A DNA stretch of 64,000 bases from a virus, in IMG/VR virus record IMGVR_UViG_3300045988_131126, one strand, 5' to 3'. Made by a program: the position numbers and the translations under genes. Shown piece by piece: positions 1 to 58,923 of the stretch. Below the pieces are notes generated by a model. That model made no database searches and had not been told where the DNA came from. It worked only from the letters and a program-made list of their open reading frames with translations. Position 1 is the first letter of the stretch, and every line of letters starts with the position of its first letter.

Positions 1-397
1 CTTGAGTATTTGATCCATATTCATGAGATGGATTTGGTTTAGACATAGCATTAGAAAAATATCTTTGAACAGAATCTCTATCAGGAGTTCTATTTGCTCT
101 TTCTGATATTTTATGCGAATCATAACGAGATGCGTCAGGGGATTTTAACGATCTTTCTGATATAACAGGTTTATCATATTTTGTGTTATTATCAAATACT
201 GATATACTTCTATTTGTAATATTATCATTATATTCTTTAGCAGGAATTGCAGCGTGTCCTCTTTCTGATATTTTAGGTGAATCGAATACACTAGTTTTAG
301 CAGCATAATTACCTCTATTAGATATTTTCGGATTATCTGTTACTGAGGTTTTAGATACTGCATTTCCTCGATTTGATATATTTGGAGTATCACTCAT
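1..397 (-). CDS. Partial CDS (N-terminal part; the gene continues past the window start). The protein carries five tandem P-[KN]-I-S-[NE]-R-G type repeats.
   Basis: I hand-translated the minus strand from the ATG at 397-395 (GGAGG at 410-406, 8-nt spacer). It is stop-free to position 2: MSDTPNISNRGNAVSKTSVTDNPKISNRGNYAAKTSVFDSPKISERGHAA..KPVISERS..SHKISERANR. It is absent from the ORF track because no stop lies inside the window. Confidence 0.6.
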   Translation of the reverse strand, partial: MSDTPNISNRGNAVSKTSVTDNPKISNRGNYAAKTSVFDSPKISERGHAAIPAKEYNDNITNRSISVFDNNTKYDKPVISERSLKSPDASRYDSHKISERANRTPDRDSVQRYFSNAMSKPNPSHEYGSNTQ

Positions 398-490
398 TCC
401 TAATACCTCCATTCTTGGTATAATTACTTTATTGTTTCGGGGCTTTAATATGTATAATAATTGTATATAATAAATATGAAAATAAGATAA

Positions 491-508
491 ACTTGTATAG
501 ATTCACCA
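491..508. repeat. Left arm of an 18-bp perfect inverted repeat (acttgtatagattcacca)
   Basis: It is the exact reverse complement of 895-912. Confidence 0.9.
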
Positions 509-615
509 TTATAAAATCAAAATGAGTTATATTTAAAGACTCCCTGACCTCACCGTATAGGCACACTTCATAATGATTTGTAACATTTCATCTAGGAAAG
601 AGGAGGATAATAATT

Positions 616-879
616 ATGACAACTAATGATTTTATGAAAGCGATTTTACCAGTAGCAGGAGACATCGTAAAGGATGTGGTTATGAATAAAATGGGTAATG
701 GTGAAAATAATAATATAGAAAAAACAAAAGTCGATATAGATAAGAAAAAATCTGGAATAGACATATTTTCTAAACCTGACAAGATTGTAGTTAATGTAAA
801 TATTTATATGAATATTTATAGTGGTTTAGGATCAAATGCTTTGTCTATGACAGGTAAAAATTACATAGAAGAATATTAA
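616..879 (+). CDS. Hypothetical small protein (87 aa)
   Basis: ORF track. GAGGAGG Shine-Dalgarno (SD) site about 7 nt upstream. No domain recognised. The gene is bracketed by an 18-bp perfect inverted repeat. Confidence 0.6.
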   Translation: MTTNDFMKAILPVAGDIVKDVVMNKMGNGENNNIEKTKVDIDKKKSGIDIFSKPDKIVVNVNIYMNIYSGLGSNALSMTGKNYIEEY

Positions 880-891
880 TTCTTCTATGTA
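862..891 (+). terminator. 13-bp perfect hairpin spanning the stop codon of 616-879 (no U-run)
   Basis: tacatagaagaat / attcttctatgta. Confidence 0.3.
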
Positions 892-894
892 ATT

Positions 895-912
895 TGGTGA
901 ATCTATACAAGT
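895..912. repeat. Right arm of an 18-bp perfect inverted repeat (tggtgaatctatacaagt)
   Basis: It is the exact reverse complement of 491-508. Confidence 0.9.
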
Positions 913-932
913 CCTTTATTTTTTGCGTTTAG

Positions 933-944
933 AACAATTGAGTA
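933..944 (+). promoter_or_regulatory. Late-type promoter word AACA-N6-TA (aacaattgagta)
   Basis: 41 nt upstream of ATG 985. Member of a nine-copy set. Confidence 0.4.
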
Positions 945-984
945 ATTATAATATTAATATGGACAGAAATGGAGGCACGTCTGT

Positions 985-2379
985 ATGATGAATCCTAAAG
1001 CTATTCATGAATCAATATTGGATACTATTATCAATGGTATACAAGACTTTCCAAAAAACTTAAAGAAAAGTATTGATAGTGGTGATCGAAAGAAATTAGC
1101 TAAAACTATAGATAATAAAGTGGCCAGTGCCACTTCTATTGCTAGAGCATCTGCTGGATTGATATTTACATATCCGGTATTATGTAGTTCATCTTTGGGA
1201 ATCAAATCATGTACTATGGTTTCTAAAGCTTTGGAACGTAGAAATGTTACAATGCTGCAGATATTATTAGCGGCAAATCAAAGAACAAATCAAAATATTA
1301 TGGATTATTTAAAAGATTTCCATACTAATTTAGATTTTGACAAAATGTCTTTAGAAGATTTTGTTGATGTAATTACAGAATCAGGGACTTATGCTAAAAT
1401 GATTAGCAAACCTGAATATTTATTAGAAATGATGCCATTAAGAGAAAAGAATGTGGCATTAGAAGATTTCAGAGAAAATACAAATTATTTTTTCGAAGAA
1501 GATGTGAATGAGAATTATATTGGAAGATTTAAATTATTAAAAAGAAACGGATATGATACTATTATAGAAGCTGATAGTAATACAGATTCCGATGATGATA
1601 AGAAAAAAAATCAAACTCAGACTAAAGATAAAGCTTTCAAAACCATAAATGTATCTGGAAGAGATTATACATACGACAGTGATGCTGATGATGTAAATAA
1701 AATGACTTCACCCAATATAGATTCAAACAGATTACTTAGTTCTGAAATTAAAAAAGCGAATGAAATGGTACCAACTTTAATGCTTATTAATACTATCGAT
1801 CCATCTACAGGTGCTAATATGCAGTCTGTAGTAGGTGTTAAGAGTAGAATGATATCAGTACCATCTGGAGAAGTTGTTGGAAGAATCCTTGCCAATTATC
1901 AGGATTCTAATAATCTTCTGAAATTTATAAAACTTACTACAAGAGAAACAAGTTTTATTAAAGATTTCTTACTTGCTGTAGATAATGCTAAATTAGACGC
2001 TATTAATAATTCTAAGAAAGGCTCTGCTACAGCATTATTTAATGCTCTTGAAAGAAGATCTCAAAACGGTAAAATCAGAAAAATGGCTAAAACCGAAAAG
2101 CAATTCGCCAAAGCTATTGCTACATTAGTTATTTCTCAGGAAGATGTAGAAGATCTTAAGAAAATGAATGGTATAGATGTAGAATCTATCAGAATAATTA
2201 AACCTATTATGGAAAAATTGAATTTATTGTATTTTGTAATTATAGACGAATCTTCTGAATCTATAAAGATTCTTATAGATGGATCTGATGATTATGAAGT
2301 ATATCCATTCAGTGCTCTGGAAAAAGAAAATAAAGATGATACATATAAAAAAGTAATAAATCTTATGGCTAAGATGTAA
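985..2379 (+). CDS. Hypothetical protein; first gene of the co-directional block 985-9767 (possibly virion or internal proteins)
   Basis: ORF track. GGAGG upstream. A late-type AACA-N6-TA motif lies at 933-944. Confidence 0.75.
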   Translation: MMNPKAIHESILDTIINGIQDFPKNLKKSIDSGDRKKLAKTIDNKVASATSIARASAGLIFTYPVLCSSSLGIKSCTMVSKALERRNVTMLQILLAANQRTNQNIMDYLKDFHTNLDFDKMSLEDFVDVITESGTYAKMISKPEYLLEMMPLREKNVALEDFRENTNYFFEEDVNENYIGRFKLLKRNGYDTIIEADSNTDSDDDKKKNQTQTKDKAFKTINVSGRDYTYDSDADDVNKMTSPNIDSNRLLSSEIKKANEMVPTLMLINTIDPSTGANMQSVVGVKSRMISVPSGEVVGRILANYQDSNNLLKFIKLTTRETSFIKDFLLAVDNAKLDAINNSKKGSATALFNALERRSQNGKIRKMAKTEKQFAKAIATLVISQEDVEDLKKMNGIDVESIRIIKPIMEKLNLLYFVIIDESSESIKILIDGSDDYEVYPFSALEKENKDDTYKKVINLMAKM

Positions 2380-2404
2380 AATAATTTTCTGGAGGTTTAT
2401 AAAA

Positions 2405-3559
2405 ATGATTAAAAAATATGCTGATATAGTATATGAATATTTTGATCCATCTAATAGTACAGAATTTCGTACTTTGATGAATCTTAATGAAGAACAACAA
2501 GATCGTGTATTAGCTAACTTAGCTACTAAATTATACGATCATATTGTAAATGAAATTACTGATATTGATTTTGGAGATATTCCAACTTCCAAAGGAGATA
2601 TCACAAGAATTCCAAATTATTTGGATATGGTAGATTGTATTAATATTATACATGATATATGTGTAAGATTTAAACAGCCTACAACTGCTACTGATACATT
2701 ATTTAAAGCAATTCAAAACTTAAAAGATACTAAAGAAATATGGAGAAAGTCATTTGATATTAAAGCTGGGCTAGGCATGAATACTTATAATACTTTAGCT
2801 TTAGGTATCGTATGTAGTGTTTCTCTATTGATTTCTTCTGCTATCGAATTTATTAAGAATCAAGAAGGAGACTTTGAATTCTTAATAAATAAAGTTGGTA
2901 TGCAGAAATCTTTAGATTCTGTATTATTTAAATCATTAAAAGAATTTAACGATGGATGCGCTGATGGTACATTCATGAAGGCTATTATTATTGCCAATAA
3001 TTCTAAAGTAAATATATCTGAAGCTGAAGTTGTATCATTCGACGAAGCTGCTATGATTGATACTTTAGTAAGAACAGCTAAAGAATTTATTAATTCGCAT
3101 GGACCAGGTTTCATGAAAAATGGATTTAATAAAGCAAAAGCCTTTGCTAGTGATATTGCTAAGGGAGCAGATGCTACTATGACAGGTGCTGGTATTGTAA
3201 CTGGTATTGGCGGATTAATTGTGATAGTTGCTGTATTATTACCTACAATAAGAAATGCTGTTCATTGGTTTTTCTCATCAAAACAAAAACTTTCTGATTA
3301 TTTTGCGATTCAGGCTTCATTGTTAGAGATCAATGCTAATAATGTAAAATATATGAATTCTAAATCTTCTACAGAAAGAGAAAAGATTGCTGAAAAACAA
3401 ATGAAATGGGTTTCCAGATTTAGAGAAATTTCTAATAAATTATCTGTAAATATGAGTAAAGCAGAAAAGAGTGCTAAAAATAAATTAGAGCAAGAATCTA
3501 ATCAAAAATTAACTATGAATGACGTAGAAAAGCCAAGTAATGTGTCTGCTTTATTTTAA
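2405..3559 (+). CDS. Hypothetical membrane-anchored protein
   Basis: ORF track. GGAGG SD. Hydrophobic segment GAGIVTGIGGLIVIVAVLLPTI followed by a charged helical tail. Confidence 0.75.
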   Translation: MIKKYADIVYEYFDPSNSTEFRTLMNLNEEQQDRVLANLATKLYDHIVNEITDIDFGDIPTSKGDITRIPNYLDMVDCINIIHDICVRFKQPTTATDTLFKAIQNLKDTKEIWRKSFDIKAGLGMNTYNTLALGIVCSVSLLISSAIEFIKNQEGDFEFLINKVGMQKSLDSVLFKSLKEFNDGCADGTFMKAIIIANNSKVNISEAEVVSFDEAAMIDTLVRTAKEFINSHGPGFMKNGFNKAKAFASDIAKGADATMTGAGIVTGIGGLIVIVAVLLPTIRNAVHWFFSSKQKLSDYFAIQASLLEINANNVKYMNSKSSTEREKIAEKQMKWVSRFREISNKLSVNMSKAEKSAKNKLEQESNQKLTMNDVEKPSNVSALF

Positions 3560-14428: not shown

Positions 14429-14447
14429 TTATCTCTTATATAATATA
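14429..14447 (-). promoter_or_regulatory. Early-type promoter word (tatattatataagagataa on the minus strand)
   Basis: Member of the family of about 14 TATATTAT..TGA(A/T)AA words. Confidence 0.4.
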
Positions 14448-14466
14448 TATTTATTGATAAATTTAA

Positions 14467-27558: not shown

Positions 27559-27571
27559 TCAAACAAAAAAT

Positions 27572-27610
27572 AAACCACATACGGGAAATCCCGTATGTGG
27601 TTTTTCTTTC
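27572..27610 (+). terminator. Intrinsic terminator after the capsid gene
   Basis: 15-bp stem aaaccacatacggga / tcccgtatgtggttt followed by tttttcttt. Confidence 0.8.
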
Positions 27611-39064: not shown

Positions 39065-39106
39065 AAACCCAGGTACTAATATTAGTACCTGGGTTTATTT
39101 TTTTTT
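39065..39106 (+). terminator. Intrinsic terminator after 37874-39034
   Basis: aaacccaggtacta / tagtacctgggttt followed by a run of nine T. Confidence 0.85.
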
Positions 39107-42100: not shown

Positions 42101-43737
42101 GATGCGACAAGAAAGATCAAGAGGAATTAGCTAAAAATATAATTAAAGCTATGAAAGTATATAAAGTTCCTACTGATAAGATAGGTAAAAATAATAAATT
42201 AAGAAATTATATAAATGGGTCTTTAAAGGAATTTGCTATTCATGAAGGATTGCTTAGTAAATATAAAACAGAAAAAAGAGAGATAACTCCTAAAGTTTCT
42301 AAAAAAGAAGCTGCTAATAAAATGGTGAATTATTTAAATAGCTTACTGAATGGAAAATATAAGCAATTTAAAAAGTATATAGAAATTGCAATTGATGATA
42401 AATATATAACCAATTTTATTAAAGATTCAGATTCTAGATATGTTCATATAGATTTATACTATTTCAATGTACCTGAAAAAGATCAGGATATACAGATTAT
42501 ATCATACGGAAAATGCAAAACATTTGATGATTATGAAGATAAGCTTCCTAAAAACATGATAGACGATCTATTTGGAGACCTCGAAAAATTTGCGAAAAAT
42601 TTATCCGGAGACGGTGTATATGATGTATACAGTATTCCCGATCAAGGATGGTCTTTAGAAGGAACCGTAGGATTTGATTATACAAAAAAATATGAAACTG
42701 TTAAAGTTAATAAGAAAACAGGAGAAGTAATGAAAGAATCAGTTTTGGATGAGGGATTATTCAAAAAAGATCCTTACAAAGATACAATTAAGAAATACAG
42801 AAAATATAATCCTTCAAGACCAGATTGTGATAAAACGATGAAAGACATAGAAAATACTCTGGTTAACGATATAGCTAAAAATATTAGAACGAAATTAATT
42901 AAAGTTGAAAATAATGAAGACGACACTGTATCTGTAATATTTAAAACAGATAAAGTATCTGGGTTAAATAAAAGATGTTTTGACGCTGTTATTAGATCTA
43001 AAGGAGTAACACTTCTAAATGAATCGTATAAGCTAATTACAGTTAAATATAAAGATTGTATTTTACTTGTATCGACTAGTGATGAAGATGATGACGATAT
43101 CGAATCAATTTTTAGAATAGATCTATCTGTTTTATATTGTAAAGAGTATTCTGATGCTTGCAAGATTTCTATATCATCTATAGAGGTTTTATGTAAAAAT
43201 GTAAATATAACATATACGTCTTTAGTAAATCCTGCGTTTGTGTCATTCTCCGTAGCCGGAGGAGGAAATGCTTATACAGATAAATATCCGAATATAGAAA
43301 AAAATACCGGATGTAAAATAATACCTAAAGCATTCGCGATATATGTATTTTCTAATAATGCAATACATGAATCTGTAGGAGTTCCTGTTGTAGGTCTTAC
43401 TAGCAAAACACCAGTAATAGTAGATAATATGTATAATAATGCATTTACTTCATTAGAAATGGATGAAGAAATAATACGTAATTGCATGATGTCTTCTACT
43501 AAAGCATTACTAAATAAAGAGGATAAATTCTACGTTCCTTATATTCCATATATACAGGAATCTTTAAATATAGATCCTAACATAGGATTTTATAGAGATA
43601 GAAATGGTATATTTGTAATGAACGAGAATACCAAATTAAGATCTCCTTCATATAATGACGTAGATGATATAGATGATAGAACTATATTATATGTAACATA
43701 TGGAGAATTAAACGATTCTAAATTAAACGATTTATAA
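39151..43737 (+). CDS. SNF2-family helicase fused to a permuted papain-like (YiiX/YaeF, C92-type) domain and a long C-terminal region
   Basis: SNF2 motifs: FDQGLGKTFTA, IIVDECQNFRN, MSGTPIKANPSEI, TGVTLVEANQMMVFCPPYRKADFDQACDRIYRIGQ. Then FSHSCISF...KWFCSRFVAELL, with His before Cys as in permuted NlpC/P60. GTG start. Confidence 0.8.
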   Translation: MPIFVDDTEAVNEKVNSFSAFISTKIIIDEKENKIFIKGINYDKFLIRIKDMYETKSVNKLFTKNYTPFTQKLWEKKKIPGYKRKVTNLEVDLFFASELYNILMQLADYYNLRYYRRMAEYIKKNTYLDNLDKNIDVKVDINRLNSILNEDYKPKDFQEEFIKKYFEYKEIYDLDGYILSFDQGLGKTFTAACISELIHPDQTIIVCMNTLKENWANELRLYFKKYNDIERFKREVYVYGVSKPKEYSNDTRYIIVNNESINKIFPLVKNTNSTMIIVDECQNFRNLDSLQTKNMLKLKQITKSKDNLMMSGTPIKANPSEIVPAMMMIDRTFTLDLAKLYIKAFTSNTDTLSDVVQTRFNRTIYRKTKDQVLDLPSKTVTNFKLEYKDEDPYLMINVKKKVADRFQEILESYKDEVDSVKDEFRETTLKYSSQDRTTTLDYIKFVDKGQDYESVHDSLYDLYDGFIKNNVYPNIKDKDELKRYKYVVSVYVYITQKCFFLAMGEVLPKIKAKAFNELYDNNKDLIYKMINNNPKKTVIFSTIVEVVDHICDDLNKNDIKAVKITGSVKNRMNIINQFREDDTVDVLVATSQTMGTGVTLVEANQMMVFCPPYRKADFDQACDRIYRIGQTHPVNIYNIIGSTSSKDITTRMTDILDWSDQMVSSVLDNIVNEEALIEKYKGEDTNMIMFEEAIYDSKHTEPVYIVLMHTGTMLANTIKAVTKDEFSHSCISFTSKLDPMFSFGNKKTSYIAGQPGFVQQNTKDEFFKKKKSVYEIYVMFVSKSQKQKMIDRLKWFKEKDKYLGYDIIGLIKYKLGISSDDNLKKWFCSRFVAELLGQAEDLGRDASLFSPQDFKNDLNFISLVNKGDDLYNYDYKVTERNLKKIKEGDYSYNESDANMGIIEKALLEMDNTDDIKESTLLTETLEDFLNNGMTVSESLALNEATLSSKERKSLPDKTFGLPEKRKFPLNDYDHVILAIKFFNRCDKKDQEELAKNIIKAMKVYKVPTDKIGKNNKLRNYINGSLKEFAIHEGLLSKYKTEKREITPKVSKKEAANKMVNYLNSLLNGKYKQFKKYIEIAIDDKYITNFIKDSDSRYVHIDLYYFNVPEKDQDIQIISYGKCKTFDDYEDKLPKNMIDDLFGDLEKFAKNLSGDGVYDVYSIPDQGWSLEGTVGFDYTKKYETVKVNKKTGEVMKESVLDEGLFKKDPYKDTIKKYRKYNPSRPDCDKTMKDIENTLVNDIAKNIRTKLIKVENNEDDTVSVIFKTDKVSGLNKRCFDAVIRSKGVTLLNESYKLITVKYKDCILLVSTSDEDDDDIESIFRIDLSVLYCKEYSDACKISISSIEVLCKNVNITYTSLVNPAFVSFSVAGGGNAYTDKYPNIEKNTGCKIIPKAFAIYVFSNNAIHESVGVPVVGLTSKTPVIVDNMYNNAFTSLEMDEEIIRNCMMSSTKALLNKEDKFYVPYIPYIQESLNIDPNIGFYRDRNGIFVMNENTKLRSPSYNDVDDIDDRTILYVTYGELNDSKLNDL

Positions 43738-43746
43738 AAAATAAAA

Positions 43747-43772
43747 CGGAATACTCCATATGGAGTATTCCG
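43747..43772 (+). terminator. Hairpin after the SNF2 fusion gene; first module of an early cassette
   Basis: cggaatactcca-ta-tggagtattccg. Confidence 0.55.
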
Positions 43773-43793
43773 TAATATCTTTATTTTTTGATC

Positions 43794-43813
43794 GTATACT
43801 ATCATATTGAAAA
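43794..43813 (+). promoter_or_regulatory. Early-type promoter word, divergent copy (gtatactatcatattgaaaa)
   Basis: It occupies the same cassette position as the copies at 50791 and 58507. Confidence 0.4.
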
Positions 43814-47256: not shown

Positions 47257-47370
47257 TGCACCTAATTCCCTTCTTTGAGAGCTTTATTTACTTATTTGTA
47301 CGTACAAAAATGATTCCGTAATATCTTTATTTTTGTCAAAATTATAGATCTTAATAAATCCTAATACAAA

Positions 47371-47390
47371 TATATATTATATAGGTGAAA
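47371..47390 (+). promoter_or_regulatory. Early-type promoter word (tatatattatataggtgaaa)
   Basis: Followed by AATAAAAAGAAAGGAG, a leader shared with the copy at 48154. Confidence 0.5.
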
Positions 47391-50756: not shown

Positions 50757-50790
50757 CTACGATACGCGTAATATCTTTATTTTTTGATCA

Positions 50791-50809
50791 TATAATATTA
50801 TAGTGATAA
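50791..50809 (+). promoter_or_regulatory. Early-type promoter word (tataatattatagtgataa)
   Basis: Inside the modular cassette 50726-50866. Confidence 0.55.
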
Positions 50810-58854: not shown

Positions 58855-58904
58855 CTACGATACTATGGCAAAATTGTATTTGTAATATCTTTATTTTTTA
58901 ATTA

Positions 58905-58923
58905 TATATTATTATAGTGATAA
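58905..58923 (+). promoter_or_regulatory. Early-type promoter word (tatattattatagtgataa), identical to 58507-58525, with no ORF downstream
   Basis: Inside the ORF-less cassette upstream of the terminase gene. Confidence 0.5.

Follow-up and report, generated by a model that had tools for sequence, protein, structure and literature searches.

A candidate end-to-end helix around a small gene in a predicted early mRNA of an AR9-related gut jumbo phage

End-to-end pairing within a bacterial messenger RNA (mRNA) is, to our knowledge, known from a handful of cases (hbs, icaR, RNAIII and hok), most of them described in a single species. Here we describe a candidate from a phage: an inverted repeat that brackets a small gene in IMG/VR virus record IMGVR_UViG_3300045988_131126, a 64,000-nucleotide (nt) stretch of DNA referred to throughout as the window, which belongs to a gut-metagenome jumbo phage distantly related to Bacillus phages AR9 and PBS1. 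In Bacillus subtilis hbs, pairing of the 5′ untranslated region (UTR) with the 3′ UTR has been validated by compensatory mutations and limits cleavage by ribonuclease (RNase) Y (Braun, Durand and Condon, 2017; PMC5737220), and hbs resembles the window's predicted transcript in its fully complementary 5′ UTR and 3′ UTR stretches (14 nt in hbs), short monocistronic mRNA, strong Shine-Dalgarno (SD) sequence and Firmicute setting. Staphylococcus aureus icaR (Ruiz de los Mozos, 2013, reviewed in PMC7821165) likewise combines pairing within one mRNA with a C-rich anti-SD motif, and its 5′ UTR-3′ UTR duplex is a substrate of RNase III (PMC7821165). The hok mRNA of plasmid R1 (PMC9841398), like the window's predicted transcript, is about 400 nt long and closed at its extreme ends (tac/fbi), with an SD masked by an upstream anti-SD box. 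The arms of the phage repeat are very probably the strands of a plus-strand RNA helix under selection. Our favored reading, to which we give a probability of about 0.6, is that they form a long-range helix in a monocistronic early mRNA of approximately 445 nt, where this helix would serve both to terminate the transcript and to protect its ends.

The left arm, ACTTGTATAGATTCACCA (491-508, plus strand), is the exact reverse complement of the right arm, TGGTGAATCTATACAAGT (895-912, plus strand), with 386 nt between them, so that an 18-base pair (bp) helix with 6 G-C pairs can be drawn. This bears out the perfect repeat reported in an earlier note on this DNA, as well as its view that chance is a very unlikely origin: base composition predicts only about 0.02 perfect inverted repeats of 18 nt across the window when the arms may be separated by up to 1500 nt, and about 2e-5 within the 422-nt span. 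At the same maximum distance, no other perfect inverted repeat of at least 16 nt with widely separated arms is found in the window, and the 18-mer, allowing up to three mismatches, matches only the two arms (0.07 matches expected from shuffles). The features that the note had placed around the arms are also there, namely an 87-amino-acid open reading frame (ORF) at 616-879 in the ORF listing, a strong SD (AGGAGG, 601-606), a GC-rich stretch, which runs from 538 to 566 rather than from about 539 to 567, and a T-run, TTTATTTTTT, at 915-924, 2 nt past the right arm. The stop-codon hairpin is likewise present, but its size and position need correction: it is not a 13-bp element at 862-891 but a perfect 17-bp stem (858-874/879-895) with a 4-nt loop, spanning 858-895 on the plus strand, with the stop codon (877-879) at the loop. 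This hairpin adjoins the right arm without a spacer, and among relatives three of its pairs are altered on both sides, one of them with an amino-acid change in the relative L010 (loci of relatives are numbered in this way throughout).

The case for an RNA helix comes chiefly from the relatives, of which the near-identical ones are uninformative for covariation and the diverged ones informative. In a nine-sequence alignment, all 13 pairs that can be counted in register remain paired (100%); variation is seen at 5, by way of G-U at four and by replacement of C-G with U-A at one. In L019, a C-to-U change on the left arm alone yields U-G; in L017, A-U has become G-C. L015 and L016 share the C-G to U-A replacement together with one base inserted in each arm, which adds a base pair, and their four further differences all give G-U on the plus strand, where the minus strand would have C-A. 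Two more diverged loci, reached through a profile search for the ORF family, have arms that differ in sequence from those of the window: L042 (AAGGTTTACACAGATT and AATCTGTGTAAACCTT) is complementary at 16/16 positions and the core of L043 (AGGCTTGTATGAA and TTCATACAAGCCT) at 13/13, even though against both of them synonymous change in the ORF has reached saturation (dS about 1.1-1.2). Compensatory changes of the kind that mark 5′/3′-UTR pairing within one mRNA are found here. Among the explanations offered in the earlier note, it is the long-range RNA duplex around a small mRNA that the data support, through co-varying arms, G-U wobbles confined to the plus strand, an inserted pair and, in more distant lineages, unrelated arms that are nonetheless complementary.

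Those distant syntenic loci were fetched with the downstream virion protein. L034 displays TATATTAT-AAACGT-G1105, followed by ATAAAAGACCTACC (1106-1119), which pairs at 14/14 positions with 1537-1550 and is succeeded by a T-run; a stop-codon hairpin and an ORF with the same motif as the window's (here NINVTVNIY) are also present. In L026, G2011 is directly followed by AAATAAAGACCAC, 13/13 paired with GTGGTCTTTATTT. The 27-nt arm pair of L025 is complementary at 23/27 positions (85%) and begins 8 nt past the predicted start, and in L035 the arms AGAGGTCG and CGACCTCT match at 8/8 positions and are followed by TTATTTTTTT. The arm sequences of these four loci are unrelated while the architecture is the same; L027 and L028, with weak AT-rich complementarity only, were left uncounted. 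Lineages agree in where the helix lies, from +1 and beside the tract, with a late promoter 4-17 nt further on, whereas helix length varies from 8 to 27 bp.

The position of the arms relative to transcription signals can be described with the rules established for AR9, in which the early consensus, AAATATATATTAT-(6N)-G(+1), is read by the virion polymerase and the late consensus is AACA-(6N)-TA/G (PMC5312081). Upstream of the left arm is an early-promoter-like element, AATTGTATATAAT-AAATAT-G (459-478, promoter sequence 459-471, plus strand), which follows the early rule with one deviation in the core and predicts a transcript start at G478, 13 nt ahead of the arm. The homologous site in L043, L034 and L026 has the canonical core TATATTAT. 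Between start and arm is an A-rich 5′ leader, GAAAAUAAGAUAA (478-490, plus strand); when 478-926 is folded to minimum free energy, leader nucleotides 478-486 are paired with the U-tract region. Beyond the right arm, a late-promoter-like element, AACAATTGAGTA (933-944, plus strand), matches the AR9 late consensus and serves the downstream virion gene (985-2379); its mirror image, AACAATAAAGTA (425-436, minus strand), serves the divergent upstream gene. With its predicted start at 425, left of the left arm, the minus-strand mRNA would contain neither arm, and the RNA that holds both would be the plus-strand one from the early promoter, a single transcript whose promoter and end are both predicted.

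In the fold of 478-926, the helix runs from +1 and comprises 17-18 perfect bp that are extended, past a small internal loop, by 7-9 further pairs. The duplex between the 5′ and 3′ ends has a calculated energy of -31.7 kcal/mol in the window, compared with -8.8 (standard deviation 2.5) for shuffled 3′ ends, and of about -30 kcal/mol across the window's family, compared with -9 (standard deviation 2.6) for shuffled partners. When predicted transcripts were folded from +1 positions assigned independently by the AR9 promoter rule, the helix began at +1 in the window, L015, L017, L034 and L026, with the U-tract region as partner, and at +3 in L043, +7 in L025 and +17 in L042, where the assumed start is a few nt out. 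Folded by itself, the 3′ end gave no tract-touching hairpin in the window, L015, L034 or L025, a weak 4-bp stem in L017 and a local AU-only hairpin in L026. The left arm is predicted to be 40-90% unpaired until the right arm has been transcribed. In a matrix of cross-duplexes, its own 3′ arm is the most stable partner of each 5′ arm in 8/8 lineages, with a diagonal mean of -27.0 kcal/mol against -14.2 (standard deviation 4.9) off the diagonal.

Immediately 3′ to the right arm is CC plus a U-tract, UUUAUUUUUU (913-925, plus strand), a putative termination point of the early transcript to judge by the over-representation of the tract and its conservation; the block CCTTTATTTTTTG is retained in all relatives. 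The arm ends at 912, and TTTATTTT at 915-922 is U at 7 of 8 positions, so a G-C-containing helix is separated by 0-2 nt from a U-rich tract (5 or more U in 8), as in an intrinsic terminator; the contiguous stem-loop with a short loop that also characterizes such terminators is missing here, the arms being 386 nt apart, and the local hairpin (858-895) ends 19 nt ahead of the tract. The window has 27 copies of the decamer TTTATTTTTT where 2.7 would be expected, approximately ten times over-representation, and seven of them lie directly 3′ of strong local hairpins with an A-rich 5′ flank, an arrangement that, judged from these occurrences, is the canonical terminator form of this phage. The 915-924 site has the same tract and the same A-rich 5′ partner, and its sole abutting stem is the long-range helix. 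A strong partner far upstream is likewise unique to this T-run (-28.2 kcal/mol, with -19.8 as the next best value); at the other early units and the other TTTATTTTTT sites of the window, no long-range partners beyond AT-only matches were found. Among the phage's own terminators, those at 27566-27609, 39065-39103 and 43737-43789 (A-tract, stem-loop, UUUAUUUUUU) share the U-tract and A-rich flank with the 915-924 site and, like the window helix, have a G+C-containing stem that ends 0-2 nt before the tract, but their loops measure 2-8 nt, whereas the "loop" of the window helix is 386 nt long and has a gene inside it.

A counterpart exists in AR9, whose syntenic g213/g214 region has no annotated gene but an annotated early promoter. 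An early start has been mapped there to G181724, 340 nt upstream of g214, and a late start to 182012, right after a T-run, while the expression of g214 rises from 0.69 at 5 min to 20.7 at 20 min and 1427 at 40 min (PMC5312081). Because g214 is silent at 5 min despite the early start upstream, the AR9 early RNA appears to end before it. This unannotated early unit (AR9 KU878088 181724-181984, L021 3072-3332; in BpSp, L020 3660-3906) carries an SD with a 15-amino-acid ORF (MFKALRTVLSIIGLQ in AR9, MFKLVRIIVSLING in BpSp), a local hairpin and a segment beside the T-run with complementarity to the 5′ region. Compensatory changes between the two phages are seen in several helices of the unit. Like the window's unit, it lies between the same divergent virion genes and combines an early promoter, an SD with a small ORF, a hairpin, a T-run and a late promoter. 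Unlike the window's, its ORF is 15 amino acids long and not homologous, and its helices cross; moreover, the 12-bp partner of the segment adjacent to the T-run is 57 nt past the start in AR9, whereas in the window it is at the start. The crossing helices are either a pseudoknot or alternative folds.

Under our favored reading, transcription would begin at the AR9-type early promoter, with G478 as the predicted +1, and the polymerase would pass the A-rich leader and the left arm, then the structured, SD-masking 5′ UTR, the 87-amino-acid ORF and the stop-codon hairpin. The right arm, upon emerging, could pair with the left arm, which would be largely free until then, and the resulting helix would stack on the hairpin 2 nt before UUUAUUUUUU, reproducing the geometry of an intrinsic terminator with the whole body of the mRNA as its loop. 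Early transcription would thereby stop just short of the virion gene's late promoter. Once released, the RNA could then zip its U-tail onto the A-rich 5′ leader, such that both RNA ends would be buried in the helix and shielded from end-dependent RNases. A broader proposal, which we advance tentatively and consider more likely wrong than right, is that of a split intrinsic terminator: the transcript's first and last nucleotides would together build the stem, so that termination would depend on the promoter, the same helix would afterwards keep the mRNA as a closed panhandle, and the design would be common to an AR9-like clade. The 5′ arm would then be restricted to RNAs begun at the early promoter, and so only these would stop before the late virion genes, in jumbo phages that transcribe with multisubunit polymerases of their own.

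Several points weigh against the favored reading. The loop of an intrinsic terminator is normally a few nucleotides long, and where 386 nt have to be bridged, stem formation may be too slow to halt the polymerase; the literature searched yielded no precedent for a terminator stem with such a long loop. Both transcript ends are predictions for this phage, and at one position (TATATAAT) the promoter core departs from the AR9 consensus. Four other sites in the window (11929, minus strand; 44144, 51184 and 59081, plus strand) consist of a hairpin, an 11-19 nt spacer and TTTATTTTTT, and because these have no distant partner, the T-run may function, or do something else, independently of the helix. 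In three cases the T-run is joined to an early promoter, and 3 of the 27 T-runs have a late-promoter-like motif within 60 nt downstream, at distances of 8 (the 915-924 site), 6 and 27 nt. The mean pairing probability of nucleotides 1-5 is 0.35 at 14 early starts, compared with 0.42 at random G starts. Finally, the AR9 and BpSp helices are arranged differently from those of the window, in part crossing one another.

The main rivals at the level of RNA accept the helix but give it another function. The duplex, stacked on the stop-codon hairpin, could be a substrate for host RNase III, which would trim leader and tail and leave a matured mRNA that is either stabilized or destroyed. With its 17-18 perfect bp, the 7-9 additional pairs and a coaxial 17-bp hairpin, the window helix is long enough, and 5′-3′ UTR duplexes such as that of icaR are known substrates (PMC7821165). 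The length of two helical turns is not kept among relatives, with 8 bp in L035, 13-14 bp in L026 and 14-15 bp in L034, and because the position of the helix is conserved and its length is not, termination and end protection are preferred to RNase III cutting, which as the principal role seems unlikely; on the sequence evidence, the two could nevertheless operate together. The other possibility is a translational lock of the hok type, in which the closed mRNA is inert with its SD masked until 3′ trimming or another trigger opens the fold and thereby times protein synthesis. In full-length hok mRNA, the 5′-3′ tac/fbi stem is joined with SD masking (PMC9841398), and the predicted folds of the window contain comparable elements. 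The conserved G+C-rich core of the 5′ UTR (538-566, plus strand), identified from fold and conservation, includes the anti-SD motifs CUCCCU (540-545) and CCU (548-550), predicted to pair with 599-605 and 594-596, respectively, and thus with the SD region GAAAGAGGAGG (596-606, plus strand). A second predicted helix, between 509-519 and 627-637 (plus strand), the latter within the first codons of the ORF, encloses the 5′ UTR, the SD and the start codon. The core block is retained as CTCCCTGAYCTCACC in L015, L016, L017 and L042 and in the form CCTCCCAATCTCACC in L043, and L034 masks its SD by an analogous UUUCUCC/GGAGGAA pairing. Masking of this kind would, as a prediction only, resemble the closed state of hok. 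Against a lock, the anti-SD and SD strands are both invariant and so display no covariation, no other, open fold in which the 5′ arm is used again was found, and the 87-amino-acid protein is not a hydrophobic toxin; the lock is about as improbable as the RNase III role. Both strands of the 509-519/627-637 helix are invariant in close relatives, which leaves covariation silent for or against it.

Explanations at the level of DNA fare worse. The earlier note had suggested an invertible segment, the 386-bp interior being flipped by a site-specific recombinase to turn the gene off or on, and a perfect 18-bp repeat around a complete gene, with a promoter-like element just outside the left arm, is what such a switch might look like. 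The inverted junction, nevertheless, was found at 0 of 46 loci and the normal junction at 23 (these are assemblies, from which a rare inversion could escape); the search patterns included the outer flank, the arm plus inverted interior alone being the reverse complement of the normal right junction. In every contig inspected, the ORF has the same orientation relative to both neighbors, and the 10 window ORFs scanned against protein families included no recombinase, although no recombinase-directed search was made. Differences between arms that are G-U compatible on one strand only are not what a DNA recombination site would give, and the arms of relatives share no sequence yet always include the +1 and the U-tract, which leaves inversion very improbable. 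The same note had raised terminal inverted repeats of a miniature mobile insertion, consistent with a small cassette that has an inverted repeat at both ends and is absent from the distant relatives L031 and L038. There is no second copy in the 64-kb window at up to three mismatches, and no target-site duplication is formed by the flanks (ATAAGATAA and CCTTTATTT); the repeat does not include the promoter, the left arm beginning 13 nt past the predicted start and the paired leader of the predicted fold extending from +1. The locus is syntenic in all relatives that bear the cassette, where the arms co-vary as RNA pairs, and neither an empty site ending at the repeat boundaries in a close relative nor further copies at unrelated loci were encountered, so that an insertion is the least credible of the explanations considered. 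The arms might instead be two DNA sites for a phage or host protein with no role in RNA, for example a regulator of the divergent late promoters, as the nesting of the repeat within an imperfect inverted repeat of late-promoter-like elements (419-436, 933-950) might suggest. The distances to these promoters are unequal (54 nt and 20 nt), complementarity is conserved between lineages where arm sequences are not, and the wobbles are strand-specific; we regard this as quite unlikely, if less so than inversion.

The gene enclosed by the helix (616-879, plus strand) encodes a protein with no assigned function, and its AGGAGG is 9 nt upstream of the ATG; the SD region is invariant in all aligned relatives. 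Homologues are 52 to 99% identical, indels among relatives are in frame, and the ratio of nonsynonymous to synonymous change (dN/dS) is 0.25-0.5 against diverged relatives and 0.70 against the near-identical L010; at the level of sequence, the ORF is under purifying selection. The family is tiny, with 5 representatives among 1.8 billion proteins in a profile search. The protein has no match in Pfam, PHROGs or PADLOC, and a tblastn search of phage records gave a chance-level match only (E = 2); for window positions 1-3000, megablast against phage records found nothing and Rfam gave no match even at an E-value of up to 10. The protein is not hydrophobic. Its AlphaFold model, at a predicted local distance difference test score (pLDDT) of 48.7, is not usable; this low-confidence model has an N-terminal helix and a C-terminal β-hairpin bearing the motif VNVNIYMNIY. 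A 111-residue database protein (P0017) begins with 38 residues that are those of the small ORF with two substitutions and continues with an unrelated hydrophobic sequence; in one relative, a frameshift, a fusion or a chimeric assembly may account for this.

The window as a whole is approximately 29% G+C and encodes split multisubunit RNA polymerase subunits, the large terminase and virion proteins, whose nearest named relatives are those of Bacillus phages AR9, PBS1 and BpSp, with 27-30% amino-acid identity. Near-identical contigs of up to 382 kb are found in ENA, JGI/IMG and Logan metagenome assemblies, several with record or sample names of human-gut type. The repeat unit resides within the divergent intergenic region between a minus-strand gene (start codon 397-395), which continues past the left edge of the window, and the virion gene on the plus strand. 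A second inverted repeat encloses the arms: 419-436 and 933-950 (TATAATTACTTTATTGTT and AACAATTGAGTAATTATA) are complementary at 16/18 positions and represent two late-promoter-like copies that face outward to the divergent virion genes. In L031 (2303-2440) and L038 (1415-1590), the divergent virion genes are only about 130-180 nt apart, and the region between them contains no early promoter, small ORF or T-run. The absence of the whole cassette fits an autonomous promoter-gene-terminator unit that can be gained or lost.

Similar signals occur elsewhere in the window. Exact copies of the AR9 early consensus are present at 14433-14452 (minus strand) and 47368-47387 (plus strand), with near-exact ones elsewhere. 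A scan for sigma-70-type promoters gave background levels. An extended early-promoter block, GTAATATC-TTTATTTTTT-[GA]AT[CT][GA]TATA.TAT-(6N)-G, is found at 43772-43809, 50768-50805 and 58882-58919 (plus strand), and in these three blocks a terminator-type T-run joins the early promoter core directly. The T-run was considered as a general upstream element of late promoters and dropped, given the count of 3/27 and other late-promoter-like sites without a T-run. The leader of the unit, ATAAGATAAACTTGTA (481-497, plus strand), resembles the promoter-to-leader junction ATAAGAGATAAACTTGTA of another early promoter (14440-14422, minus strand, start 14433), which may reflect a duplicated promoter-leader segment; the unit that starts at 14433 has no downstream complement. 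At 28297-28234 (minus strand), a perfect 16-bp hairpin begins at the +1 of an early promoter, AATTGTATATTAT-TATAAT-G, and leads into UAUUUU, an arrangement that would give an RNA of about 45 nt or a 5′-terminal stabilizer, and the early starts at 58919 and 17391 (plus strand) also have a hairpin at or near +1. Burial of the 5′ end as a general rule of this phage's early RNAs was dropped, pairing of nucleotides 1-5 being below random.

Should the helix prove to be a terminator, a loop of hundreds of nucleotides would have to be regarded as compatible with intrinsic termination, which could also be made specific to a promoter, with a bearing on terminator prediction, phage genome annotation and the design of synthetic circuits. 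The unannotated early unit of AR9 is a place where the idea can be tested directly. What is new relative to the known examples is that end pairing is backed by natural covariation across many phage lineages, that it is placed in a predicted early transcript of jumbo phages with their own RNA polymerases, and that the helix takes the place of a terminator stem.

The comparison with those examples can be made point by point. The 3′ partner in hbs sits just ahead of an ordinary terminator hairpin that is a separate element, and the leader holds the 5′ partner in its interior, whereas in the window the predicted helix begins at or near +1 and abuts the U-tract, with no other stem touching the tract, and is supported by phylogenetic covariation. 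In icaR, it is the 3′ UTR itself that masks the ribosome-binding site; in the window, the anti-SD is part of the 5′ UTR, and the partner of the 3′ end is the extreme 5′ leader. The hok system differs by its membrane toxin, the Sok antisense RNA and a switch operated by 3′ trimming, none of which is evident in the window, where no antisense search was made. Overall, the window presents a probable case of end pairing within one mRNA like that of hbs, icaR, RNAIII and hok, and it differs from them in a helix that starts at +1, stands in the place of a terminator stem and has broad phylogenetic support among phages.

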